A DNA stretch of 64,000 bases, taken from sequence record KJ190157. One strand, 5' to 3'. The DNA comes from Escherichia phage vB_EcoS_FFH_1. The notes under the pieces are model-generated. The model searched no databases. It was not told the origin of the DNA and was given only the letters and a program-made list of their open reading frames with translations. The position numbers and the translations under genes were made by a program. Shown piece by piece: positions 1,708 through 26,676 of the stretch (position 1 is its first letter; every line of letters begins with the position of its first letter).

Positions 1708-1736
1708 ATTATACAGAACTTTTGGAAACTAAGCAA
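1708..1736 (-). promoter_or_regulatory. Conserved early promoter, positioned to drive the downstream tRNA genes
   Basis: Minus strand reads TTGCTT-17 nt-TATAAT (plus aagcaa 1731-1736, attata 1708-1713). Confidence 0.55.
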
Positions 1737-2016
1737 CTACATTTTTTAAGAATTTGATGCCTTTCTTTTTCTTCTTATATTTCCACGTTAATGGATTCTG
1801 TCGATTATGAACGCTTGAGATCTTTGTCTCGTCAAAGTTCTTCAATATCATGTAATCACAGGATAATTGTTCTAGTAGAATGTGATCACCGTCAAAAGCG
1901 TATACATAAGGCTGTTGACTAACACGATAATGATAGACTTTGTTAATTCTACGTTTCAGCGACTTATCAGCGCAGTAAATAAAGAAGTTTTCAGGATGCA
2001 TCAGCAGCTCCTTCAA
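1729..2016 (-). CDS. Hypothetical protein (95 aa, lysine-rich C-terminus)
   Basis: ORF; no recognisable motif. Confidence 0.4.
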   Translation of the reverse strand: MKELLMHPENFFIYCADKSLKRRINKVYHYRVSQQPYVYAFDGDHILLEQLSCDYMILKNFDETKISSVHNRQNPLTWKYKKKKKGIKFLKNVVA

Positions 2017-2018
2017 TT

Positions 2019-2093
2019 TGGTGCACCCTGTTCGTATCGAACGAACCTCTCAAGCTCTTCAGGCAAGCGCTAATCCATCTCAGCTAAAGGTGC
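2019..2093 (-). tRNA. Probable tRNA-Phe (anticodon GAA); anticodon stem imperfect
   Basis: Acceptor GCACCTT/AGGGTGC, loop CTGAAGA, T-arm GTTCG-TTCGATA-CGAAC, CCA encoded; only 3 of 5 anticodon-stem pairs. Confidence 0.5.
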
Positions 2094-2099
2094 AAATTT

Positions 2100-2176
2100 T
2101 GGCAAACCTACTAGGACTCGAACCTAGACCGTACGGTTTTGGAGACCGACATGCTGTCCAGTAACACTCTAGGAAT
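2100..2176 (-). tRNA. Possible tRNA-Trp (anticodon CCA); acceptor stem has two mismatches
   Basis: T-arm CTAGG-TTCGAGT-CCTAG, anticodon loop CTCCAAA, CCA encoded; T-T mismatches in acceptor stem as read. Confidence 0.4.
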
Positions 2177-2184
2177 GCAGAAAT

Positions 2185-2261
2185 TGGCGTCCTGTGCGGG
2201 GATCGAACCCGCAAATCCTACCTTGAAAGGGTAGTGACTTTACCAGTTTGTCTAACAGGAC
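2185..2261 (-). tRNA. tRNA-Glu (anticodon TTC), CCA encoded
   Basis: Perfect acceptor GTCCTGT/ACAGGAC, anticodon arm CTACC-CTTTCAA-GGTAG, T-arm GCGGG-TTCGATC-CCCGC. Confidence 0.8.
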
Positions 2262-2268
2262 TTAAATT

Positions 2269-2359
2269 TGGTGTTGGATGATGGAGTCGAACCACCCGAG
2301 ACCCTTCCGAGTCGGCAGATTTACAGTCTGCTTCGCTACCTCTACGATACTAATCCAAC
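2269..2359 (-). tRNA. tRNA-Tyr (anticodon GTA), long variable arm, CCA encoded
   Basis: Perfect acceptor GTTGGAT/ATCCAAC, anticodon arm GCAGA-CTGTAAA-TCTGC, T-arm GGTGG-TTCGACT-CCATC; 91 nt. Confidence 0.75.
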
Positions 2360-2489
2360 ATATTTAGAAGTATTCAAAAATTCTCATTTAAACACTTTTA
2401 AATATGTTTTCAAATTAGGTAACTATTATACCAAGTTTTAAGGCACTGAGCAAGTCAAATTTTAAAGAACTTGCTCAGTGCTATATTAG

Positions 2490-2765
2490 TTAGTCGAACT
2501 TAGGAGTGACAGTTAAGGAGAACGGAAGTTCGAAAACTTCTTCACCCTCATTACTAACGGTAACTACACGACCTTTAAGTTCAGACATTAAAATATCAAT
2601 ATCAGCTTTTGCATCTGGAGCCATGCCAGCTTCAATACATTTAGCTTTAACCTCCGGTAGAAGATCTACGTTATAGAGATAGAGCCACTCAATCTCACCT
2701 TCCCAGTCTTCCCAGGATTTGCAGATTGCACTTTCAATACCAGTTGCTGCAACACGATTTTGCAT
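2490..2765 (-). CDS. Hypothetical protein (91 aa)
   Basis: ORF; a long inverted-repeat hairpin lies just downstream at 2446-2482. Confidence 0.45.
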   Translation of the reverse strand: MQNRVAATGIESAICKSWEDWEGEIEWLYLYNVDLLPEVKAKCIEAGMAPDAKADIDILMSELKGRVVTVSNEGEEVFELPFSLTVTPKFD

Positions 2766-2855
2766 TCGTTAACTCCTTCATCAATTTATACAACTATTAT
2801 ATCAGAAATTTAAAGCAAAAGGCAAGTACATTTTTAAAAATTCTGTTTGGAGGAG

Positions 2856-3062
2856 CTAAACTCCAGATTCTTCAGCTAAGTCTAGGCTAATAAGAGTTAT
2901 AGCCATAATTGCTGCACCGTGTTCTTTTTCTCCGGTGTTTTTAGCAGAGTCTATAATAGTCTTAATCTGTTCGTAATAGCCTTTTACTTCTTGTTCAATA
3001 CCTGCCTCGGCTATCATGCCTTTAGTCATGATTCGTTGCATAGTAATTTCACGGTTAGCCAT
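2856..3062 (-). CDS. Hypothetical protein (68 aa)
   Basis: ORF. Confidence 0.4.
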   Translation of the reverse strand: MANREITMQRIMTKGMIAEAGIEQEVKGYYEQIKTIIDSAKNTGEKEHGAAIMAITLISLDLAEESGV

Positions 3063-3222
3063 GATGTTTCTCCAGCTTCATTTTTAATAGTTTACAAATG
3101 AAATCAACGTCTTCATCTGTACCTAGATCTCTATCTTCAAGAGTTGCCTTGAAGTTTTTAGTCAATTCCATGAGGATAACTTCTCTAGAACGACGTGTTG
3201 GCGGAGGTGGATGTCTATACAT
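3055..3222 (-). CDS. Hypothetical small protein (55 aa, MYRHPPPPTRR...), below the ORF-track cutoff
   Basis: Hand translation; ATG at 3222-3220 preceded by AAGGAAATAAG; its stop overlaps the start of the next gene. Confidence 0.3.
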   Translation of the reverse strand: MYRHPPPPTRRSREVILMELTKNFKATLEDRDLGTDEDVDFICKLLKMKLEKHHG

Positions 3223-3237
3223 CTTATTTCCTTAGTT

Positions 3238-3314
3238 TGGTAGGGGTGGTGGGATTCGAACCCACAAAACCTGAATTTTAAGTCCAGTACCTATGCCAAT
3301 TCGATTACACCCCC
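3238..3314 (-). tRNA. tRNA with anticodon TAA (Leu by anticodon) but a short class-I variable loop
   Basis: Acceptor GGGGGTG/CACCCCT, anticodon arm CTGGA-CTTAAAA-TTCAG, T-arm GTGGG-TTCGAAT-CCCAC, CCA encoded. Confidence 0.6.
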
Positions 3315-3321
3315 GTGTAGT

Positions 3322-3510
3322 TTAGTCAATTACTTTTGAGGCTTCAAGGTAGTCGATATAGTGTATGTTTTCTACCGTAATCATATAATCTGCCACTTTA
3401 TCCATAGCTTGGGCTTCAGAGGTAGCTCTGGCTAACCTATATCCTTTTTTATATTCATCCGGGTATTCTCTATCTTGGATAAACACAACATAAACTATAT
3501 ATAGATCCAT
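3322..3510 (-). CDS. Hypothetical protein (62 aa)
   Basis: ORF. Confidence 0.4.
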   Translation of the reverse strand: MDLYIVYVVFIQDREYPDEYKKGYRLARATSEAQAMDKVADYMITVENIHYIDYLEASKVID

Positions 3511-3529
3511 TTGTGACCTCTATTTAATT

Positions 3530-3607
3530 TGGTGGCTCCCCGAGGATTCGAACCTACGTACCTTCCGGTTATGAGCCGGGTGCTCATACCATATGAGCTT
3601 GAGAACC
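3530..3607 (-). tRNA. tRNA with anticodon CAT (Met, fMet or Ile2 type); weak T-stem
   Basis: Anticodon loop CTCATAA, D-arm GCTC...GAGC, acceptor GGTTCTC/GGGAGCC with G-U pairs, CCA encoded. Confidence 0.55.
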
Positions 3608-3613
3608 AGAATT

Positions 3614-3702
3614 TGGCGGAAGAAGCGGGAATCGAACCCACAAGGCTATATTTCAAACCGACAGATTAGCAATCTGCTGCAATACCGTTATGCTATTCTT
3701 CC
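3614..3702 (-). tRNA. tRNA-Ser (anticodon GCT), long variable arm, CCA encoded
   Basis: Perfect acceptor GGAAGAA/TTCTTCC, anticodon loop TTGCTAA, T-arm GTGGG-TTCGATT-CCCGC; 89 nt. Confidence 0.75.
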
Positions 3703-3723
3703 GAATTTATAAGATATATTATA

Positions 3724-4245
3724 TTAGAAATTTAGCTTCATAGCAAGAAAATTTTTCAAGTTTTCGGTAGACATCTCATCCACATCTACGGGAGAAACAA
3801 AGCCGTTTAATTTTCTAGCAAATTTTTCACCCGCAGGATCATTGTCCCCAACAGCTACCAATTTAAAAGGTAGTAATTTCAGTTGCTTTAATAACGCTTT
3901 TCCTGGAGAAGAACCCAACATTGCTAGGGCTGGATAACCAGCATTATGTAACGCAACTGCCTTAAATACAGATTCAGCAATCAATACTACTTTTTCATCT
4001 CCATTGAGAGTTTCTAGTCCCCATACACACTGGGTAGTAGAATAAGTAAAGTATTTAGCTTCAAAGGGGCACTTACCATGACCTTTTGGAGCAGAAGGAT
4101 TATAAGTTTGATAGCCCCTCAACATCCCGGAGAAGTCATACAACGGGACTGTTAGCCATCCTTCCGGACTTAACCAGCAATGATATTTATCTGTATCAAA
4201 TCCTCTAGATAAGAGGTGCTGTGTTAGCTCATCAACATTCATATT
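3724..4245 (-). CDS. Toprim-domain protein (DnaG-type fold), about 173 aa
   Basis: Conserved glutamate in LIAESVF and the acidic motif VGDNDPAGE; start taken at the internal ATG (4245) with RBS GAAAGAGGAA, because the longer ORF would overlap the promoter at 4273-4301. Confidence 0.55.
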   Translation of the reverse strand, partial: NMNVDELTQHLLSRGFDTDKYHCWLSPEGWLTVPLYDFSGMLRGYQTYNPSAPKGHGKCPFEAKYFTYSTTQCVWGLETLNGDEKVVLIAESVFKAVALHNAGYPALAMLGSSPGKALLKQLKLLPFKLVAVGDNDPAGEKFARKLNGFVSPVDVDEMSTENLKNFLAMKLNF

Positions 4246-4272
4246 TGGTTCCTCTTTCAAATTTATAGATAT

Positions 4273-4301
4273 ATTATACAGAGAATTTAGCATTCAAGCA
4301 A
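4273..4301 (-). promoter_or_regulatory. Conserved early promoter (TTGCTT-17-TATAAT)
   Basis: Plus attata 4273-4278 and aagcaa 4296-4301. Confidence 0.6.
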
Positions 4302-4417
4302 TCAAATTTTTTAACTTTTTAGAGGAAAATCATAGGGCACTTAAGGATAGCAGATAAGTGGTGAGGACCAAAATTTGTGACCCCACTAAAAATCCTGGGG
4401 CAATTTTTAAAGACCCC

Positions 4418-4446
4418 TTGACATTTTCGCTGGGGTAGTGTAAAGT
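4418..4446 (+). promoter_or_regulatory. Sigma70-type promoter with consensus -35 TTGACA (spacer 17, -10 TAAAGT)
   Basis: ttgacattttcgc at 4418-4430; the same 13-mer recurs at 33016; drives the antisense plus-strand cassette. Confidence 0.45.
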
Positions 4447-4509
4447 ATATGTTATGGATGAGTGATCAAATAGACACACATTTTCTATATACTAGGAGGT
4501 GTCAAAAAA

Positions 4510-5492
4510 TGACAGAAGAAGTAACTAAGAGTCCTGAGACCGTCGCTAGCGTTGCAGCAGAATTGCACCGTCACGAGGAATCAGATAAGAAAAAGTGGGA
4601 GAAGGTCAGAGCCTACGAAGAAAAACATCGTGAACACGATGATAAAGAAGATGATGATGAACATTGTCATAAATATGGAAAACATAAAATGCAAGAACCA
4701 GTAAACGTATTCACTAGTGGCTTCCCTGGCCTACTGGGTGGTTATCCAGCAAACGCAAGTGCTTTCGGTGGTGAAGGTATGGGACTATTCGGAGCTATCC
4801 TAATCGGTGCTCTATTAACAGGCGGATTCGGTGGTTTCGGTGGATTCGGCGGACGTGGTGTAGTTGGTGAAGGTACCGCAGTTGATGCAGTACTTCAGAA
4901 CCAAGATACCGCTAGTATTCTAGCAGCTATTAACACTACTCGTACAGAAGCTAACCAGGGTACTGGAGCTGTTTTAAGCGCAGTTAACAATGGTTTTAGC
5001 CAGACATCCCAAAACCAGAGCCGTGATACTCAGTCTGTACTGACTACGATCTATGGTACAGGTGCTAATCTGTCTAATCAGATCTGTCAGGAAACTCGCA
5101 ACGTTATTCAGGGTCAGTTCGATCTTTCTCGCCAGATTGATCAATCTTTCGCAGCTAATCAGATAGCTCGTGCACAAGATAAGTTTGATTCTGCACAGAT
5201 CGCTTTCCAGCAGACTTTACAAACTAATAACCAGTTTGCCGCTGTTCAGGCTCAGATGTGTGCTAATCAGAACTCTCTGGAACGTCAGATCGCTGAATGT
5301 TGCTGTGAACTTCAGACTGCGATCGCTGGTGTAACTACTGCGCGTATCCAGGATGAGTTAGATGCATGTCGTCTACGTGAAGCAATCGCTGCGGGTAACG
5401 GTGCTAACGGTCAGGTAATTAATCAAATCGCTGTAAGTCTTGGTGCTATAACTCAGACTCTGGCTGGTCTGCAGGCTAAACTGCCGGCTTAA
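4510..5492 (+). CDS. Low-complexity membrane protein: charged N-terminus, one hydrophobic helix followed by GGFGGFGGFGG, then an N/Q/T/S/A-rich C-terminal region
   Basis: Start taken at the ATG after GGAGG (4510); codon usage biased to GGT/GCT/CGT/CTG unlike neighbouring AT-rich genes; opposite strand to flanking genes. Confidence 0.5.
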
Positions 5493-5513
5493 TATTAAGG
5501 GGAGGAGCCCATT

Positions 5514-5930
5514 ATGAGTAAATATGGTTTTGTAAATAACGGACTTAATCAAAGTATGGGCTCCCAGCAGCCCCTGCCTGGTCTGGATAACCCCTACTTA
5601 CAACAATTGCAACAGCGTTTAGCAGAAGCGCAACAGATGCAGCAACAACTCCAGCAAAACCCTGGAAGTGTGAGTCCTATGCAAATGATGCAGCAAATGA
5701 GCGGGCAGTCGCAAATGCCTCAACAAATGCAGCAACAGGTGCCTCAGCAGCAAGTTCAGCAACAAACCCAACAACCGCAGGTTTCTGCGGAAGGACAGGC
5801 AGTACTAGCCCTTTTCGAAGACTTCGCAAAGACAGAGGATGGGAAACAGCTTGTATCACTTATGGGTAAGTTTAATAGCTTCTGCCAAAGCCAAGTTGCA
5901 AAAGCTCAAAATGGTGGTAATAACTCCTAA
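5514..5930 (+). CDS. Glutamine-rich low-complexity protein (138 aa)
   Basis: RBS GGGGAGGAG upstream; roughly 40 percent Q in the central region. Confidence 0.5.
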   Translation: MSKYGFVNNGLNQSMGSQQPLPGLDNPYLQQLQQRLAEAQQMQQQLQQNPGSVSPMQMMQQMSGQSQMPQQMQQQVPQQQVQQQTQQPQVSAEGQAVLALFEDFAKTEDGKQLVSLMGKFNSFCQSQVAKAQNGGNNS

Positions 5931-5939
5931 GGAGAAATT

Positions 5940-6134
5940 ATGTGTTGCAGAAAACCTGTTTCGTGCTGCCCAATGCCTGTAGCACGTTGTTGCTCTCCAG
6001 CAATGTTTACACAAATACCGGCGTTCAATCCCTTTGCCTTTAAGCCTACTCTTATCCTGCCCCCTAGAGTAGATTTTCAGTCAAGATTGGCCTCCCGTAT
6101 GGGTGGTTGCTGTACACCGAGAGTGTGGTTCTGA
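5940..6134 (+). CDS. Small cysteine-rich protein (64 aa; CC pairs)
   Basis: RBS AAGGAGAAA 5 nt upstream of ATG; followed by an intrinsic terminator. Confidence 0.4.
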   Translation: MCCRKPVSCCPMPVARCCSPAMFTQIPAFNPFAFKPTLILPPRVDFQSRLASRMGGCCTPRVWF

Positions 6135-6150
6135 AGAACCAAACAATAAA

Positions 6151-6186
6151 GCCCCTAGTCGAAAGACTTAGGGGCTTTTCTGTATT
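6151..6186 (+). terminator. Intrinsic terminator ending the plus-strand cassette
   Basis: GC hairpin gcccctag...ctaggggc followed by a T-run. Confidence 0.6.
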
Positions 6187-6190
6187 TAAG

Positions 6191-6230
6191 ATAAAAGAAA
6201 AGCCCTGCGCTCTCCAGGGAACGCAGGGCT
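6191..6230 (-). terminator. Intrinsic terminator downstream of the SPFH gene
   Basis: Hairpin agccctgcg...cgcagggct with an A-run on plus (U-run on the minus transcript). Confidence 0.5.
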
Positions 6231-6254
6231 TACTTCAGATGTTACATGCGGATA

Positions 6255-7202
6255 TTATTTATTACGCATATCCATGATCATTTGACCATCGTAGCCAGTA
6301 CCTACCACAGTCTGTGGTACACCACCTTGATATTTCTGAGCACGAATCATTTCGACTTCCAGTTGTTTCCAACGAATCATCTCAGGAGTAATGGTACGTT
6401 GCAGTGCGGCGTTAGCTTCAGCTTCTTTCTTAGCTGCGTACAGTTTAGCATCTGCGTCACGTTCATTAGCGATAGCTTGGTTGTTGCGAGCTTCACGATC
6501 TGCTTCTGCTTGTTTAACTTTTTGCTGTGCTTCCTGTTCAACACGAGCTAATTCAGCTTTAGCAGCATTAACCTGTTCTTCACGAACTTTGGTATTCTGT
6601 ACCTGTTCCATGATTACCGGTGGCAAAGTAATATCCTGAAGGAATACCTGCTTAACTGTGTAACCATATGGGCGTGCATACTCTTCAACTTCCTGTTGAA
6701 TTGCAGTTTGCAATTGAGCCTGAATTTTAGCATCAAACAAATCTTGTGCTTTAGGTACAGACTTACCAAACTCACGAATAGTAGACAGTAATTTTTCAGT
6801 TACATATTTGTCTAACGCTTGATCCTGAGTACCTGCGTTAATACGGTTAATTGGTGCCTTAGAACCATCAAACTGCAACATAACAGTCAGGTCAACAGTG
6901 GATTTAAACTTATCCTGGCTAGGAACCTGAAGTTTATCTAATTTTACAGCAATATCTTTTGTACTAAAAGTGTCGAAAGATGCAAATGGGTTTACAAGAT
7001 GGAAACCTGGTAATACTGGGTTAGGATCTACTTTACCCAGAAATGTTTGGGTTTTAACCGTACCATCAGAAACAATAGTATATGAATTAAAGGCTAGAAT
7101 CAAGCCTGCTAAACCAACTACAGCACCAATACCCCAACGTTTAATAGTACGAATTACTTTCTGCTCAGAAGTCAGTTCTTTCATATTTTTAGTATTAAAC
7201 AT
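6255..7202 (-). CDS. SPFH/band-7 (prohibitin/HflK-HflC-like) membrane protein
   Basis: N-terminal transmembrane helix, SPFH-like core, long coiled-coil A/E/Q/K-rich C-terminus; RBS AAGGAA. Confidence 0.65.
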   Translation of the reverse strand: MFNTKNMKELTSEQKVIRTIKRWGIGAVVGLAGLILAFNSYTIVSDGTVKTQTFLGKVDPNPVLPGFHLVNPFASFDTFSTKDIAVKLDKLQVPSQDKFKSTVDLTVMLQFDGSKAPINRINAGTQDQALDKYVTEKLLSTIREFGKSVPKAQDLFDAKIQAQLQTAIQQEVEEYARPYGYTVKQVFLQDITLPPVIMEQVQNTKVREEQVNAAKAELARVEQEAQQKVKQAEADREARNNQAIANERDADAKLYAAKKEAEANAALQRTITPEMIRWKQLEVEMIRAQKYQGGVPQTVVGTGYDGQMIMDMRNK

Positions 7203-7236
7203 ATATTTCCTTTGTTTTAGTTACAGTTAATAAAAT

Positions 7237-7311
7237 TGGCCGAGGTGACAGGATTCGAACCTGCATAAAGGAATTTAGAAGACTCCTGCCTCTCCCTTAG
7301 ACTACACCCCG
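7237..7311 (-). tRNA. tRNA-Arg (anticodon TCT), CCA encoded
   Basis: Acceptor CGGGGTG/CACCTCG, anticodon arm GGAGT-CTTCTAA-ATTCC, T-arm GCAGG-TTCGAAT-CCTGT. Confidence 0.7.
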
Positions 7312-7812
7312 TTTAAATATTTTTAAGAACTCTCGTAAAAACTCTTAAAAATACAGACGATACCGGGAGAGTCATAAGTCTCACTCATTAAGTATTTCAA
7401 GACAAAATACAGTAACGTCTATTATTTTCCAGTTTAAGTCAGGGTGACTTAGTGGTTATGTCCTGCGGTATATTGAGGACTCGGTTAGGCTTGGGGTCAT
7501 GACTTCCCGCCTTTTGCTGCTACTCAACAGGAGTTATCGCGAATTACCTGTGCTATTGTGCACCATTAGTGACATCTCTCATGTCAGCATTTCCCACTTT
7601 GTGGATAGCTTGAAAAACTACTCCGATATGGAGAAAAACTTCACTATCCTAGAATACCTTCTAAAGTTCTTCTTTAGCCTGGACATAGTTAAAGCGTAAT
7701 AAAACTATTCAGCAGACTGGTTGGTTAGTCTGGAACCAACTACCGCGTGGTTTAGGCAGTGCGCAACTAACCTCGGAAGCTTTTACGTTAAAAGCATCAG
7801 TTATCCAGTTCT

Positions 7813-7884
7813 TACCGACCGTAGGATTCGAACCTACATCTTCCACCAGTTACGGCTTGATAATACCAATTATACTAGGACGGC
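7813..7884 (-). tRNA. tRNA-like element or pseudo-tRNA; anticodon stem does not pair
   Basis: Good T-arm GTAGG-TTCGAAT-CCTAC and a 6 of 7 acceptor stem; no CCA encoded. Confidence 0.3.
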
Positions 7885-8122
7885 AGTGTTACTACATAAG
7901 TGATTTCCACACCCCACTATTTATAAATTAGAGAAGAGTTTAGGGGAGAGGTTTCAGACGCCTCATTTTACACGTTCTAGCCACTAACCGGGATTGCCGC
8001 CCCCTGTGTACTAGTTTTACAACTAACCCACCGACTCTATTCAACGAATCTTAGTGCTCGACGCATCTTACATTAAGACAAGTTCAGCGTAATCGGCTCG
8101 CTGTTCTCTAATTTATGAATAT

Positions 8123-8151
8123 ATTATACAGAATTTATAAGCATTTAGCAA
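8123..8151 (-). promoter_or_regulatory. Conserved early promoter (TTGCTA-17-TATAAT)
   Basis: Plus attata 8123-8128 and tagcaa 8146-8151. Confidence 0.6.
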
Positions 8152-8159
8152 ATAAATTT

Positions 8160-8603
8160 TTAATTAAATTCGCCAGCAATCTGAGCAGCAGTACCACCAT
8201 CGTAACGCCCAGGAAATTCTTCCTTAATCGCTTTCATCAGCATACCTTTTGTAATTCCAGGGTTTAGCTTAACTAATTCTGCAAAGTATTTACGAATCTC
8301 AGTATCAGATAACTGAGGAGGCAGATACTCCTGCAACCACTTATTTAGAATGTATTCATACTGAGCGGACTGCAAGCTATAACTATCAAGATCTTGACCA
8401 TGAAGTTTAGCTTTCATCTGGTTAATGCTTTTTAGTTGAGCTTTGAGATAAGACACAAATTGTTCAGAAGTGATGAAATCTTTATCAATACGCTGAAGAT
8501 CCCCGATTATGGTCTGATAGCTTTTAGCGACTTCTTTATCAGAACCATTAAACTTAGAATCCTGCAAAGCTCTACGCAAAACATCTAAAATATTCTCTTC
8601 CAT
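8160..8603 (-). CDS. GatB/YqeY-domain protein
   Basis: YLPPQLSDTEI and the C-terminal GITKGMLMKAIKEEFPGRYDGG pattern resemble the YqeY family as recalled from memory. Confidence 0.55.
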   Translation of the reverse strand: MEENILDVLRRALQDSKFNGSDKEVAKSYQTIIGDLQRIDKDFITSEQFVSYLKAQLKSINQMKAKLHGQDLDSYSLQSAQYEYILNKWLQEYLPPQLSDTEIRKYFAELVKLNPGITKGMLMKAIKEEFPGRYDGGTAAQIAGEFN

Positions 8604-19915: not shown

Positions 19916-20677
19916 TTACACCTTCCCCATGTCTTTAAAAATGTCATAGAATGCTTTAGACTCAACAGAACGAACGTTATCAATCAATTCGATCATTGAG
20001 AAGGGGGCATTTTCGTATTTCTCATAGACTTCCATAAGGAGTGCTAGACCTGAGTCACCTTTAATGTCTTTCTGAGCTATATCTCCGCAGATAATTAAAC
20101 GGCAGTCTTGTCCTACACGGGTTAGGAGACAAATCATTGCCTCAACGGAAATATTCTGAGCTTCATCGACAATTACATAGGAGTTGTTGAAAGTTCTGCC
20201 ACGAGCATGTTCGATAGCCAAAAATTTAATTTTCTGACGTTCGACATATCCTTTATATGCATGATCGCCGATGGCCCATTTCATACCATCAGCTATTGGC
20301 TCCAACCAAGGCTCTAGCTTTTCCGCTAGATCACCAGGAAGCATACCAAGAGACTTACCTAGAGGTTCATTAGGACGTACGAGAATCACTTGCTCAATAT
20401 CTGAGTGAATGTCTACTAGTTCCTGAGCTGCAAGAACGGACGGAATAAAGGTTTTACCAGTACCTGGCTCACCGATACCCACAGTCACTGTGTTGTTCTT
20501 GATCATATTGATATATGATTTTTGCTCGCGGTTTTTACCTACTAGGGATTTAGCAACTGGGTTAGCGTAATCATTAGAAAAATCAGCCTGAATTACGTTA
20601 TTCTCATATTTGTTGCCACGCTTTCTTGAACCATTGCGGTTCTCTCTTTTTTGACGTGCTTTTCCCATAAATAACAC
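19916..20677 (-). CDS. phoH: PhoH-like ATPase
   Basis: Walker A GEPGTGKTF and PhoH-like layout; RBS AGGAG. Confidence 0.85.
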   Translation of the reverse strand: MLFMGKARQKRENRNGSRKRGNKYENNVIQADFSNDYANPVAKSLVGKNREQKSYINMIKNNTVTVGIGEPGTGKTFIPSVLAAQELVDIHSDIEQVILVRPNEPLGKSLGMLPGDLAEKLEPWLEPIADGMKWAIGDHAYKGYVERQKIKFLAIEHARGRTFNNSYVIVDEAQNISVEAMICLLTRVGQDCRLIICGDIAQKDIKGDSGLALLMEVYEKYENAPFSMIELIDNVRSVESKAFYDIFKDMGKV

Positions 20678-22903: not shown

Positions 22904-22940
22904 TCAGCCGGGTTGCTAGTCGACCTGGCTTTTATTTTAT
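22904..22940 (+). terminator. Intrinsic terminator after nrdD
   Basis: Hairpin agccggg...cctggct followed by ttttatttta. Confidence 0.5.
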
Positions 22941-22998: not shown

Positions 22999-23379
22999 AT
23001 GACTTTAAAACCGTATATAGTGGAGTCTACGTGTGGCAGTTTCCACCTGGGTGTGGATGATATTGCTGAGGCTGTCTTTGCTGCCACAGGTGATTACTCT
23101 CATATAGGGGGTGCTGGGTACCCCACCGTTATTGGCGATTGGGTGGAAACAAATCTAGATGTGTCGCCTTATAACCCGTATTGCTTGTTTGATGAAGACA
23201 GAGATGAGGTAAAGTGTAATCTTGAATTTGTGTATAATAGAGTATTAAAAGTATACCAACGTAGTCCCGAGGGGTACGGAGATATTACTTGTAGTATTAA
23301 ACAGTATCTTAAAGATGTATACTCTAGTTTTTCTGACGAAGGCCTAGAAACAGTTGCAGTGGAGTTTAATAATGACTAA
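22999..23379 (+). CDS. Hypothetical protein (126 aa); no radical-SAM CxxxCxxC motif, so not an obvious NrdG
   Basis: ORF with RBS GAGGAGG. Confidence 0.5.
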   Translation: MTLKPYIVESTCGSFHLGVDDIAEAVFAATGDYSHIGGAGYPTVIGDWVETNLDVSPYNPYCLFDEDRDEVKCNLEFVYNRVLKVYQRSPEGYGDITCSIKQYLKDVYSSFSDEGLETVAVEFNND

Positions 23380-23578
23380 GAATGTGAAACACCTTAAATA
23401 TCGCTTAATCTATAACGGACGTATGGAAACAGAAGATCTGGCCCAATTAGCTATTAATTCTAATGAGGTTATGGTGCGTGCGCTAGCAATTGAAAAGTTG
23501 CGTGCTTCTTATGAAAATCGTGTTATGGAACTAGAGGAGAAACTGTATGGACTTCTTGAATCAGAGTCTAAAAAGTAA
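23372..23578 (+). CDS. Hypothetical protein (about 68 aa)
   Basis: Start taken at the internal ATG (MTKNVKHL...). Confidence 0.4.
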   Translation: MTKNVKHLKYRLIYNGRMETEDLAQLAINSNEVMVRALAIEKLRASYENRVMELEEKLYGLLESESKK

Positions 23579-23741
23579 TCCAGAAAACATGCTTATTGAG
23601 CAATGGAACTTTGGTTATAATGCCGGTATAGCTACTTGTATTGCTAGATTGGATATGCTTATTAAGCAAGAAAAGGTACGCCCGGAGGAAGCAATTTTAC
23701 TCCGAAATATTATCGAAGGATTTAAGCAAGGAATCGTATAG
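23547..23741 (+). CDS. Hypothetical protein (64 aa)
   Basis: RBS GGAG upstream. Confidence 0.4.
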   Translation: MDFLNQSLKSNPENMLIEQWNFGYNAGIATCIARLDMLIKQEKVRPEEAILLRNIIEGFKQGIV

Positions 23742-24565
23742 TGCGTAGACTAATTATTATTAGCGGTGCGGGTTTGAGTGTTGAAAGTGGTGTACGAGCT
23801 TTTCGTACTGATACTGCTAGTGGTAAAGCATTGTGGGATGATTATAATCTAGAAGAAGTATGTAATATTCATGCCTTTCGTGGTAATTTTTATCATAAAA
23901 CCCATATGTTTTACAACAAGCGACGTGAAGAGTTAGAAACTGTTGAACCTAACCTTGCGCATCTTCGTATTGGTGAGTGGTATAAGAAATATCCGGGTCA
24001 AGTAGTAAATTTGACTACTAACATTGATGACCTTATTGAGCGTGCTGGTGTTCCACATAATGATATTCTCCACATTCATGGATACTTAAAGGAGGTTGTT
24101 GTAGCTGATAGCTACAATAGTAGTAATAAACGAATTATTGATGTTGGGTATAACTCTATTGACCCAGAGGATTATAAATGGGTTAAACCTAACGTTATCT
24201 TCTTTGGTGAGCATGCTCCAGCATATACAGAAATGTACAATGTTTTTGATGGTATTACCAGTCAAGATATGATCATTGTGGTTGGTTGCTCTAACCAAGT
24301 AATTAACTTCTACTGGGAATTATTTCCTGTTCTTAATTTGACTGCTGCCAAATTAATGGTAGTTAACTACTACGATAGTGCCCTAGCGGCAGAACCAGGC
24401 TATCAAGGTATGACTCGTAGTGAGATGTACCAGTTGGAAGATCGTGGTATTCCTTACTGGAGTAAAGGTGCGGTAGATGCTTTTAGTGACCCTGATTTTA
24501 TTGCTCGTGTGGAAGCCCATTTAGAGGGTAGACCTTACGTGCCAGGGAAACAAATATGTCCATAA
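23741..24565 (+). CDS. Sir2-family protein (NAD-dependent deacylase / ADP-ribosyltransferase fold)
   Basis: Motifs GAGLSVESGVRAFR, TTNIDDL, HIHG; GTG start with RBS AAGGAA. Confidence 0.75.
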   Translation: MRRLIIISGAGLSVESGVRAFRTDTASGKALWDDYNLEEVCNIHAFRGNFYHKTHMFYNKRREELETVEPNLAHLRIGEWYKKYPGQVVNLTTNIDDLIERAGVPHNDILHIHGYLKEVVVADSYNSSNKRIIDVGYNSIDPEDYKWVKPNVIFFGEHAPAYTEMYNVFDGITSQDMIIVVGCSNQVINFYWELFPVLNLTAAKLMVVNYYDSALAAEPGYQGMTRSEMYQLEDRGIPYWSKGAVDAFSDPDFIARVEAHLEGRPYVPGKQICP

Positions 24566-24738
24566 TTAAATCTGTGTATACACACCCTGATGATATATTT
24601 GTATGGGCGGACGGTAGTTGGTGCTATCGCTGTGAACTGTGGGAAATGGACTATAAATCCGATGACTATGGTGTCATATATGTTGATACGGCTGAGTATG
24701 ATACGTTCTTAGAAAGGAACAAAAATGGAAATAAGTAA
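24556..24738 (+). CDS. Hypothetical small protein (60 aa)
   Basis: ORF overlapping both neighbours. Confidence 0.35.
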   Translation: MSIIKSVYTHPDDIFVWADGSWCYRCELWEMDYKSDDYGVIYVDTAEYDTFLERNKNGNK

Positions 24739-25231
24739 TACTCCAATTATTTTTCTAGACATTGATGGGGTGCTCAATTCGAGCATCTCCCACCATCATG
24801 CACCTGATGATGAAAAGATTTTCTTTGGAAGTGACTGGGTTTTCAAACCGCTTCTCAAGGCTTTTCAGGACTTTATTCGTCCTTCTCCGATAATGATTGT
24901 TGGGGTATCCTCATGGTTCTCTGTCAGGAATGAGATGGAGAACGTTCAGATTATGACCGGATTAGGTCTTATCGATCGTTTTCTTGGTACAACGGATTTT
25001 ACTGGTGGTGGGCTATCTAGGGGTAATTCTGTTCTTCGCTTCGTTGAAAAGCATAAGCTCAAACATTGGTGTGTACTGGATGACGCTGGTGCTATGATGT
25101 ATCAGTATCCAACGGTTATAGTCAATGGTAGAACTGGAATAAATCTTCAAGATTTAAAAGCTGTTAGCTATATGCTAGAATTTAGCCCAGATCTTGAAAT
25201 GTGTAAATCCTTACAACAATTTAAGGTGTAA
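24725..25231 (+). CDS. HAD-superfamily phosphatase-like protein
   Basis: N-terminal FLDIDGVLN (DxDG motif I); RBS AGGAA. Confidence 0.55.
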   Translation: MEISNTPIIFLDIDGVLNSSISHHHAPDDEKIFFGSDWVFKPLLKAFQDFIRPSPIMIVGVSSWFSVRNEMENVQIMTGLGLIDRFLGTTDFTGGGLSRGNSVLRFVEKHKLKHWCVLDDAGAMMYQYPTVIVNGRTGINLQDLKAVSYMLEFSPDLEMCKSLQQFKV

Positions 25232-25233
25232 AT

Positions 25234-25662
25234 ATGTTCAATAATGTATTCTCTAAAGAAGCTAACCCAATTTTGGTTAACTTTTGGCGTACTCTCCCAG
25301 CTAGCCTGTATAATGAGGCTATTAACTCTTTGAAAATATGGTGTGAGAATAACGAAATCTCCTTTGCTTTTAAAGATGATATTGATGAGGCTCCCTGTAT
25401 TGTTTTAATTGTGCAGGTAGAGGAGGGTCTTGAAGAGATTGTGGGCTGGAAAGAGTTAGACGAAATGGGCTTAGTTTTTGCGTTAAATTATAAACTGTTT
25501 ATGCCTGCTAAGCATCGCCTTGTTGTTAACTATAAAACTAGTGAATCTCCTGGTTTTCAGGTTAATGAACGTTATGGTTGGTCTTACTCACCGGAAGAAG
25601 TAAATGAGGGGATTCAGAAACTTCGACGTTTCGGGTATATGATCCCGGGTTTAACTGCTTAA
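25234..25662 (+). CDS. Hypothetical protein, paralog A of a tandem pair
   Basis: Shares WKELDEMGLVFALNYKLFMP and C-terminal YMIPGLT with the next ORF. Confidence 0.5.
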   Translation: MFNNVFSKEANPILVNFWRTLPASLYNEAINSLKIWCENNEISFAFKDDIDEAPCIVLIVQVEEGLEEIVGWKELDEMGLVFALNYKLFMPAKHRLVVNYKTSESPGFQVNERYGWSYSPEEVNEGIQKLRRFGYMIPGLTA

Positions 25663-25671
25663 GGAGGCAGG

Positions 25672-26064
25672 ATGGAACAAGTATATTGGCGTCAGATTGA
25701 CCCTAGTTTGGTGAAACGTGCGGAGAAGCTGCTACAACGTTGGTTGGGGGTAAGGCAAGCCTCCTTCTCTTTTCCGGAGCAGCAAACGGATGATCCATGC
25801 ATTGGCGTTTTCCTGTCTGGATATGCCGGGGAATGGGAGATGGATTGGAATGAATTGTCCGCTATGGGTTTAATTGTTGCCCTAAATTTCTCTTTGTTCC
25901 ATCCACGTGGTTTGGCCATATGTCGTGTGCCTGATGACGGTTGTTCGCCCCATCTTTTACAGGTGGAAGATGATATTTGGGAGTACACTCCAGATATTCT
26001 CAAAGAAGCTAAAGAACAATTAAACCGTGTTGGGATTTATGTTCCAGGCCTAAATGATGAATGA
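25672..26064 (+). CDS. Hypothetical protein, paralog B of a tandem pair
   Basis: WNELSAMGLIVALNFSLFHP and YVPGLN match the previous ORF; RBS AAGGAGG. Confidence 0.5.
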   Translation: MEQVYWRQIDPSLVKRAEKLLQRWLGVRQASFSFPEQQTDDPCIGVFLSGYAGEWEMDWNELSAMGLIVALNFSLFHPRGLAICRVPDDGCSPHLLQVEDDIWEYTPDILKEAKEQLNRVGIYVPGLNDE

Positions 26065-26088
26065 TTTTTACTAGCTGAACTCTGATTA

Positions 26089-26113
26089 CCGAGTCAAAAT
26101 GACTCGGTTTTAT
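26089..26113 (+). terminator. Intrinsic terminator
   Basis: Hairpin ccgagtc-aaaat-gactcgg followed by ttttat. Confidence 0.55.
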
Positions 26114-26155
26114 CCGTACTCAAGACCAATGATAGCACCATCCGGAAAATTTTAC

Positions 26156-26184
26156 TTGCAGGATGCCCAAAATCTTGATATAAT
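26156..26184 (+). promoter_or_regulatory. Early-type promoter (TTGCAG-17-TATAAT) with no ORF for about 490 nt downstream
   Basis: ttgcag 26156-26161 and tataat 26179-26184 followed by the conserved ATATTTATATTGAGAG box. Confidence 0.5.
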
Positions 26185-26676
26185 ATTTATATTGAGAGAC
26201 ATTAGTAAAAATTGATTTTGCTAATTTTTCTTGTTTACAATCCGCGATACGGAACAGTTAGGCTGCCCCATTAAGGGTTGTTTTAACTATTACTAGTGTT
26301 TATATTGCATTAGTTAATCTTCAATTAAGTGATCTGTGTACCCTGAATTCGGAAAGGTAAATCCAAACCGTGCATATTTAGCTCGTTATATAGGCAGAGC
26401 TTTATATGGGGGTGCGAACGAAAAGAGCAGCGAATGGCGGCACGTACAGTAGTCACCTACCAATAGGATAGTGAGGACAAATAGAATCGGCTTAGCGGCC
26501 AATGACCTAGGTTCTATTCTGTATATGAGCGAAGAGAGCACAGCACTGAGATATGATAACTTATTCATATTGTTTGATGATAATTGATGTTTACGTAAAT
26601 AGTAGTAATAGTTGTTCTATTCTTTCTGAATAGTCCTAAAGAAAAGATTTCTATTAATCAACACAGGAGTATTGTT

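Follow-up and report, generated by a model that had tools for sequence, protein, structure and literature searches.

Phage-encoded sirtuins were described as a distinct clade with three conserved gene neighbourhoods by Iyer, Burroughs, Anantharaman and Aravind in 2022 (PMC9503650, section 3.7.3). In that section, the neighbourhood of T5-like phages that combines a sirtuin with a SAK-like HAD protein is listed as type 3, the 'Escherichia phage SP15' group. The phage sirtuin is predicted there to remove 2'-phosphates from RNA in a KptA/Tpt1-like reaction that uses nicotinamide adenine dinucleotide (NAD+), and the linked enzymes are proposed to open cyclic phosphates or to process the ADP-ribose phosphate by-product. 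We analyzed a cassette of this kind in a 64,000-nucleotide stretch of DNA from Escherichia phage vB_EcoS_FFH_1 (sequence record KJ190157; hereafter, the window). The cassette occupies positions 23741–26064 on the plus strand and encodes a Sir2-family protein, a HAD-superfamily phosphatase and two tandem proteins of the DUF7415 family. It is already known: its genes carry annotations dating back to the earliest T5 genomes, and an analysis of the Sir2-HAD pairing appeared in 2022. Following Iyer et al., we tentatively favor the view that the Sir2 and HAD proteins jointly process damaged RNA ends. The tentativeness applies to the RNA-repair mechanism; there is hardly any doubt about what the parts are.

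The four open reading frames (ORFs) lie exactly where a first-pass annotation of the sequence had placed them, and its Sir2 and HAD domain calls were right, with Pfam scores far above the gathering cut-offs. The Sir2-family gene (23741–24565; 274 aa, GTG start) is the orthologue of T5.102, and its product matched Pfam SIR2 (PF02146; E=4e-25, 89.2 bits against a gathering cut-off of 24) and phrog_2162 (E=8e-121). The HAD protein (24725–25231; 168 aa, T5.105 orthologue) matched HAD_SAK_2 (PF18143; E=4e-20, 73 bits against a cut-off of 27.5) over profile positions 1–138 of 139. DUF7415 paralog A (25234–25662; 142 aa, T5.106 orthologue) matched PF24187 with E=1.7e-33 (115 bits) and phrog_2502, and paralog B (25672–26064; 130 aa, T5.107 orthologue) matched the same Pfam family with E=2.2e-31 (108 bits), the cut-off being 27 bits. 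The proposal that these two are a duplicated pair held up in pairwise alignment (32% identity over 124 aa, E=4e-20). Phage SP15 was among the matches for both the HAD protein and DUF7415. The window has the Sir2 plus SAK-like HAD neighbourhood that the section assigns to type 3, and its sirtuin belongs to the same clade as those encoded beside ligase, kinase, 2H and Nudix genes. The section presents the mechanism as a prediction, and neither the DUF7415 pair nor the missing zinc-binding cysteines described below come up in it.

As judged from its sequence, the Sir2 protein is a zinc-less, class III-like member of a phage-specific sirtuin clade, with the NAD-binding and catalytic motifs all kept. 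The motifs lie at residues 9 (GAGLS), 57 (FYNKRR), 92 (TTNID), 111 (HIHG) and 154 (FFGE). In an alignment of 38 clade members, residues G9, G11, S13, F21, R22, Y58, R61, N94, D96, H113, F155 and E157 were invariant (38/38). They belong to the NAD-binding motif GAGxS, an FR pair in the cofactor loop, TTN(I/V)D, the catalytic histidine (H113), the FFGE loop and the class III Y58-x-x-R61 pair, and Y58 and R61 in FYNKRR align with FYNARR of CobB. The usual Gln of QNID is replaced by Thr in the clade. A loss of the catalytic His or Asn, which would have told against the first-pass interpretation, was thus not observed, H113, N94 and D96 all being present. Because the catalytic His and the Asn and Asp of TxNID are present and invariant, we consider an NAD-consuming activity to be a sound inference.

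By sequence, the nearest solved relatives of the Sir2 protein were Escherichia coli CobB (1s5p was the best match), archaeal Sir2Af1/2 and SIRT5. An AlphaFold2 model built from 38 homologues (mean predicted local distance difference test score, 88.9) superposed best on CobB in Foldseek (TM 0.83, normalised to CobB), with E-values of 6.6e-18 and below for CobB and SIRT5. The fold, GAGxS, the Asn and Asp of QNID, the catalytic His, the FGE loop and YxxR are common to CobB, SIRT5 and the phage protein, but the phage protein is only about 25% identical to them, has Thr for Gln in QNID and lacks the zinc-binding cysteines. The phage clade also has a clade-specific C-terminal helix, and its T5-like members carry an insertion at about residues 210–235. 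Cysteines occur in the Sir2 protein only at positions 41, 183 and 273; the Zn-ribbon Cys4 was sought between the catalytic His and FGE, and no Cys was found in residues 114–148. Across the clade, this segment contained no Cys in 25 sequences and one in 13, and in the model its length and beta strands were kept despite the cysteine loss. The top NCBIfam matches were protein deacylase models, although the scores fell far short of the CobB equivalog cut-offs (99.5 bits against 243 for the subfamily model, and 89.6 against 320 for prot_deacyl_CobB). The clade is both phage-specific and large: the Sir2 protein query returned 999 phage records, mostly from T5-like, rV5-like, phi92-like, KVP40-like and jumbo phages, and the top 120 database clusters were all at least 49% identical. 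One Sir2 orthologue is labelled 'tail assembly protein' in a public record.

The HAD protein has motif I (DIDGV, with the DxD nucleophile) at residue 12, SSW at residue 62 and, as an acidic motif IV, DD at residue 119. Its family, HAD_SAK_2, was defined on RNA-repair proteins according to the Pfam description. Within the established classification of HAD enzymes, the cap-less type tends to act on macromolecular ends. At 168 aa, the phage protein appears too small to leave much room for a cap domain, and this apparently cap-less form favors a macromolecular substrate. A sequence comparison with the Protein Data Bank detected no solved relative at E<=1, T4 Pnkp included. The DxD-type HAD phosphatase chemistry is common to the phage protein, the phosphatase domain of T4 Pnkp and the 'Swiss Army Knife' HAD domains; the phage protein differs from T4 Pnkp in being a stand-alone protein of 168 aa without a kinase or ligase domain. 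A literature search found nothing on HAD_SAK_2 or DUF7415. The RefSeq record names the HAD gene T5.105 'Sir2 (NAD-dependent deacetylase)', apparently by way of phrog_18062.

The genomic contexts behind the RNA-repair proposal were checked independently of Iyer et al. and were confirmed: in several other phages, orthologues of the Sir2 gene lie among genes for RNA-end or ADP-ribose processing. In rV5_ev168, a 58%-identical Sir2 is encoded beside a '3'-phosphatase, 5'-polynucleotide kinase' gene, a phosphoesterase gene and a tRNA cluster. A 60%-identical Sir2 in SSE121 stands in a run with genes for a metallophosphoesterase, an RNA ligase, an ATPase, a DNA ligase and a nucleotide pyrophosphohydrolase. 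The identity of the window protein to the rV5 and SSE121 sirtuins was thus 58–60%, and to that of GAP32 it was 43%. The GAP32 Sir2 gene is flanked on one side by a small gene that bears the label 'RNA ligase' and on the other by a Nudix hydrolase gene, with nicotinamide phosphoribosyltransferase and nicotinamide mononucleotide adenylyltransferase genes about 2–4 kb away. The Sir2 neighbours in phage inny and Vibrio phage D485 were uninformative. A further context that speaks for RNA repair comes from Aeromonas-type T4-like phages, in which genes for a HAD_SAK_2 homologue, T4 Rnl1 RNA ligase, a DUF7415 protein and a PolyA_pol-family nucleotidyltransferase are all located within 8 kb. The same Sir2 plus HAD_SAK_2 arrangement occurs in T5, Elw and My1, and in the window only a 60-aa ORF separates the two genes. 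A candidate Sir2 gene upstream of a HAD gene in Proteus phage Pm5461 (gp023) gave no Sir2 signal and was rejected. In the jumbo phage GAP32, a PhoH-like gene was seen about 1.3 kb downstream of the Sir2 orthologue (positions 7037–8479 of that locus).

In the mechanism that we tentatively favor, the targets would be damaged RNA ends, most plausibly those of tRNAs that toxin nucleases or nucleases of host defence have cleaved. With NAD+ as its co-substrate, the sirtuin would remove a 2'-phosphate by ADP-ribosyl transfer, as Tpt1/KptA does, and the HAD protein would remove a terminal 3'- or 2'-phosphate or dephosphorylate the ADP-ribose phosphate by-product. Since the ORFs scanned included no phage RNA ligase or polynucleotide kinase, host enzymes would have to carry out sealing or CCA repair. 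The likeness to Tpt1/KptA is a functional one. The proposed chemistry would be the same, NAD+-dependent removal of an RNA 2'-phosphate through an ADP-ribosylated intermediate, and the section of Iyer et al. reports similar genes nearby in other phages (2H, Nudix, ligase and kinase; PMC9503650). The two proteins are not homologous, Tpt1/KptA having an ADP-ribosyltransferase fold and the phage protein a predicted Rossmann-fold sirtuin domain. Two things support this RNA-repair reading: the gene neighbourhoods, which were seen in several phage lineages that are unrelated, and the family to which the HAD protein was assigned. According to the same section, RNA repair would amount to counter-defence only indirectly, by mending damage done by defence nucleases (PMC9503650).

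Several observations weigh against RNA-end processing. The sirtuin keeps the deacylase acyl-lysine residues, namely the FFGE loop and YxxR, and from homology plain deacylation would be the more parsimonious activity. The clade is acidic (median isoelectric point [pI] 5.2, net charge −6 to −20), and the HAD protein has a pI of 5.7; such acidity is unlike what an RNA-binding enzyme would be expected to show. At the positions of the clade-invariant basic residues R19, R22, R61, R62 and R101 (and of K149, which aligns with Arg), CobB also has basic residues in the alignment. The search for a phage RNA ligase or polynucleotide kinase covered ten other window ORFs and the first 63 kb of the T5 annotation and found none; repair, if it occurs, would go no further than end-healing and would need host enzymes. 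The Sir2 and HAD genes are not always found together: Sugarlandvirus has Sir2 and two DUF7415 genes without HAD. The synteny within Demerecviridae is inherited and hence is not independent evidence. The cassette also lies in a nucleotide-metabolism block (nrdA, nrdB, nrdD, thy and frd), and a literature search found no biochemical, genetic or other experimental study of this phage sirtuin clade; the HIDEN-SEQ preprint likewise yielded nothing on Sir2 or T5-like phages.

Published fitness data are available for the T5 orthologues. Adler et al. (2025; PMC11879866, supplementary files 1 and 16) knocked down T5 genes genome-wide by CRISPRi-ART. With laboratory E. coli as the host, they scored T5.100–T5.106 as 'Not Fit', a class into which Sir2, HAD and paralog A all fall. 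Paralog B corresponds to T5.107, which was among the 17 genes in total that scored 'Fit' (p=0.0215) and was grouped with the Fit genes 'of entirely unknown function' (PMC11879866). The screen was insensitive, as nrdA, nrdB, nrdD and T5.108 were likewise 'Not Fit' (PMC11879866), so more weight can be placed on the T5.107 hit than on the negative calls. The first-pass annotation had looked to deletion phenotypes on defence-carrying hosts; on this point, the knock-down of T5.102–T5.106 gave no fitness defect, but the host was laboratory E. coli without added defences (PMC11879866). A conditional role for Sir2 and HAD would agree with this result, which also shows that the two DUF7415 paralogs are not redundant.

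Among the other explanations, the strongest is that the Sir2 protein is an ordinary NAD-dependent lysine deacylase of the CobB/SIRT5 type (succinyl, malonyl or acetyl), which would strip acyl marks from host or phage proteins and might be useful, for example, in acetyl-phosphate-rich or stationary-phase cells. The HAD and DUF7415 proteins would then be functionally unrelated or would just clear ADP-ribose by-products. We regard this as a serious rival, if somewhat less likely than RNA-end processing. Its nearest relatives in sequence and fold (E. coli CobB, archaeal Sir2Af and SIRT5), the invariant YxxR (FYNKRR), the retention of the FFGE loop, the catalytic His and TxNID, and the protein deacylase models that head the NCBIfam matches all speak for deacylation, and dispensability on laboratory hosts is compatible with it. 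Set against these are scores far under all the CobB equivalog cut-offs (89.6 bits against 320, as given above) and the clade-wide disappearance (0–1 Cys) of the Zn-ribbon cysteines, which help to shape the canonical peptide cleft. In four phage lineages, moreover, the gene adjoins genes for RNA-end or ADP-ribose processing and nothing tied to protein acylation.

The DUF7415 pair is a module separate from Sir2 and HAD, and its distribution bears on a further explanation. The T5-type proteins are acidic (pI 4.5–4.8), and we are confident that they have an orphan fold. Their widespread core is the C-terminal half (residues 56–118 of paralog B), with the motif WNELSxxGLxxxxNxxxxHPxGLAxxRxxxxGxSP, and the N-terminal half is specific to T5-like phages. 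An exhaustive profile search yielded 257 clusters at 50% identity. The core also occurs alone, as proteins of 72–77 aa, in two settings. In T4-like Klebsiella phages (Jiaodavirus), the single-domain gene lies between nrdD and nrdG, and in Aeromonas-type phages it directly follows the gene for T4-type RNA ligase 1 (Rnl1), with a HAD_SAK_2 gene about 2 kb upstream and a gene for a PolyA_pol-family nucleotidyltransferase about 2 kb downstream. Fusions of the core were found with thymidylate kinase, with a MazG-like dATP/dGTP pyrophosphohydrolase (PF04447) and with ASCH/DUF3850. In about a dozen longer proteins the core stands beside regions without a known family, so that most fusion partners are unassigned; when these were compared with PHROGs, only families of unknown function were matched. 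DUF7415 is most likely a binding, adaptor or regulatory module tied to nucleotide and RNA metabolism rather than an enzyme of the Sir2/HAD steps, because it is small and acidic, has promiscuous fusions and lacks an enzyme-like relative.

Some details of the DUF7415 survey are given here for completeness. An internal duplication was considered, as Pfam reported two matched stretches per protein, but BLAST detected no similarity between the N- and C-terminal halves, and a hidden Markov model from 43 single-domain homologues matched the C-terminal halves only; the duplication was therefore rejected. In Klebsiella phage KpV477, the 72-aa gene (positions 3995–4213 of the locus) overlaps both nrdD and nrdG, and the first 13 Klebsiella/Raoultella phage matches examined had the same features under the match. 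In the Aeromonas-type T4-like phages, the run comprises thymidylate synthase, HAD_SAK_2, DUF4326, (DenA), T4 Rnl1 and DUF7415, with the PolyA_pol-family nucleotidyltransferase further on; it was seen at two loci (1723–8479 and 5171–8529 in locus numbering), and the DUF7415 start abuts or overlaps the Rnl1 stop. The context of the homologue P0060, a small element that also encodes a Phage_GPA replication protein, was uninformative. DUF7415 proteins are mislabelled in public records as 'tail protein', 'tail tube protein' and 'exonuclease'.

These associations raise the second alternative, that the HAD protein (as a nucleotidase) and the DUF7415 proteins (as tethers or regulators of NrdD and related enzymes) are accessories of the adjacent genes for deoxynucleoside triphosphate (dNTP) synthesis, with Sir2 linked to them by position only. 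The cassette does lie directly after nrdD, within the nrdA, nrdB, thy and frd block; the Jiaodavirus genes between nrdD and nrdG, the fusions to thymidylate kinase and dATP/dGTP pyrophosphohydrolase, and the HAD_SAK_2 homologues that follow thymidylate synthase in Aeromonas-type phages point in the same direction. On the other hand, HAD_SAK_2 proteins are short and apparently cap-less, a type that usually acts on macromolecules. With Rnl1 preceding it in some phages and ASCH/DUF3850 as a fusion partner, DUF7415 is not associated with dNTP synthesis exclusively, and most of its fusion partners are unassigned. We consider this explanation improbable.

The first-pass annotation had linked the Sir2 protein to the Sir2 domains of anti-phage defence. 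The defence Sir2 NADases (ThsA, DSR1/DSR2, Sir2-HerA and the short prokaryotic Argonaute system SPARSA) have the Sir2 superfamily fold and the use of NAD+ in common with the phage protein, as far as comparison of the proteins indicates. The phage Sir2, however, has no fused or adjacent sensor (SLOG, HerA or Argonaute), its neighbours being HAD and DUF7415. It comes from an early operon of a lytic phage, and its sequence is much closer to those of housekeeping sirtuins. In PADLOC, none of five proteins of the cassette gave a match at E<=0.01, and the Sir2 protein is therefore not a defence-type NADase; the proposed likeness was not borne out, as the sequence matches canonical sirtuins and a sensor partner is missing. 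Nor do the genes behave as one four-gene module, as Sir2, HAD and DUF7415 part company in Sugarlandvirus and in rV5-like, phi92-like, jumbo and T4-like Klebsiella phages. In the rV5-like, phi92-like and jumbo phages, Sir2 has neither HAD nor DUF7415 nearby; in the T4-like Klebsiella phages, DUF7415 occurs with neither Sir2 nor HAD in the locus examined; and My1 has Sir2, HAD and one DUF7415 gene. What survives of the earlier interpretation is thus an intact, presumably NAD-using enzyme, and the defence-type Sir2 and the indivisible module do not. A search of the eight operon proteins for Pfam domains of NAD+ reconstitution (NARP1/2/3: Nampt, NMNAT, ADPR-PP synthetase and NadR/PnuC-type) found none.

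The direct counter-defence role proposed in that annotation, in which the cassette would manipulate NAD+- or ADP-ribose-derived small molecules of the host by destroying or diverting immune signals or by buffering NAD depletion, with the HAD protein dephosphorylating the nucleotide product, is likewise improbable. In its favor, Sir2 by homology must bind and cleave NAD+, the GAP32 orthologue lies near NAD-synthesis-type genes and directly before a Nudix hydrolase gene, and the genes are dispensable without defences. Against it, the protein resembles neither the defence Sir2 NADases nor any PADLOC model, the cassette has no NAD-synthesis enzyme, and NAD+ consumption would worsen rather than counter depletion-type defences. 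The residues kept for acyl-lysine binding and in the anion pocket also suggest that the substrate is a macromolecule or is acylated.

The RNA-end-processing reading can be extended to two bolder, linked proposals. The zinc-less sirtuin may be the first with an RNA substrate (by 2'-phosphate removal or ADP-ribose end capping), and DUF7415 may be an unrecognised orphan-fold adaptor or regulatory domain that docks NrdD, Rnl1, thymidylate kinase and MazG-like proteins onto a common partner, with paralog B (T5.107) needed for normal T5 growth. Taken jointly, these statements are unlikely to be right; an RNA-acting sirtuin would give T5-like phages a ligase-independent rescue of tRNAs cut by host defences. 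Beyond what section 3.7.3 of Iyer et al. contains, the present analysis adds three points: the whole clade has lost the zinc cysteines while retaining YxxR, DUF7415 has an orphan fold and a range of fusion partners, and this family is connected with the fitness phenotype of T5.107. About 1000 sequenced phage genomes carry the sirtuin clade. Genetic work is feasible in T5, and the phage already serves as a model for defences that target tRNA; its Sir2/HAD pair is therefore convenient for testing an RNA-acting sirtuin, and interest would rise sharply if one were demonstrated. T5.107 is one of the few T5 fitness genes without a known function, and work on it can now start from the widespread orphan-fold domain that it contains and from the fusions of that domain to nucleotide-metabolism proteins.

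Sequence comparison confirmed the window as a T5-like phage (Tequintavirus). Over about 3.7 kb around the region, nucleotide identity to many Tequintavirus genomes, T5, AKFV33 and Elw among them, was 94–97%, and the same 3.7 kb matched 447 phage records. In T5, the same genes stand in the same order and between the same flanks, nrdD upstream and a 929-aa 'replication origin binding' helicase-like gene downstream. Positions 23741–26064 correspond to T5.102–T5.107 and are the distal part of an eight-gene early operon (22999–26064; T5.100–T5.107 orthologues) just downstream of nrdD. The operon was defined by eight genes, all on the plus strand, that overlap or nearly abut, with a plus-strand terminator on each side.

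The upstream boundary is an intrinsic terminator after nrdD (22906–22930), which has a 10-bp stem with six G-C pairs followed by a T run; the T5 annotation has a terminator and a promoter at the equivalent place. The first ORF of the operon (22999–23379; 126 aa, T5.100 orthologue) matched phrog_11748 (E=3.6e-74) and has a homologue in My1, and a Pfam search matched no family. It is overlapped by a T5.101-like ORF of 74 aa (23354–23578; phrog_5236, E=5e-46). A 64-aa ORF (23547–23741; phrog_5827, E=4.6e-31), which is annotated in phage Elw, follows, and its stop overlaps the GTG start of Sir2. Between Sir2 and HAD, overlapping both, lies the small acidic 60-aa ORF (24556–24738; pI 4.35), which is T5.103/T5.104-like and matched phrog_5116 (E=2.3e-30). 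The first-pass gene content was correct for its four named ORFs and overlooked this conserved 60-aa ORF and the three small ORFs upstream (22999–23741). Differences from T5 are minor: two tandem phrog_5116 ORFs in T5 (T5.103 and T5.104) against one in the window, and one small ORF annotated before Sir2 in T5 against two in the window and Elw. Small-ORF content (23354–23741 and 24556–24738 in the window) thus differs among close relatives; the T5 counterpart lies at 4373–5815 of the T5 locus compared.

The downstream boundary is a hairpin terminator at 26088–26113, read from the sequence as ACCGAGTCA-aaa-TGACTCGGT and then TTTTAT. It corresponds to the terminator annotated after T5.107 and was not listed by a consensus terminator scan. 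Between it and the 929-aa helicase-like gene lies a non-coding stretch of 560 nt (26117–26676), which is AT-rich and contains promoter-like hexamers and an 18-nt inverted repeat with arms 293 nt apart; a scan of this stretch found no Rfam family and only short repeats.

Further features were seen elsewhere in the window. ORFs at 4449–5492 (347 aa) and 5514–5930 (138 aa), both on the plus strand, are the orthologues of T5.077 and T5.078; Pfam gave no family for either, and they lie on the strand opposite to the surrounding tRNA genes. ARAGORN found 10 tRNAs in the window, and the phage therefore has its own tRNA set. The Rfam tRNA model gave two tRNA-like matches on the minus strand, at 3533–3607 (40.3 bits) and 7813–7884 (35.5 bits), both absent from the 10 of ARAGORN. 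Just upstream of the operon, a PhoH-like ATPase gene (19916–20677, minus strand) is divergent from nrdD.

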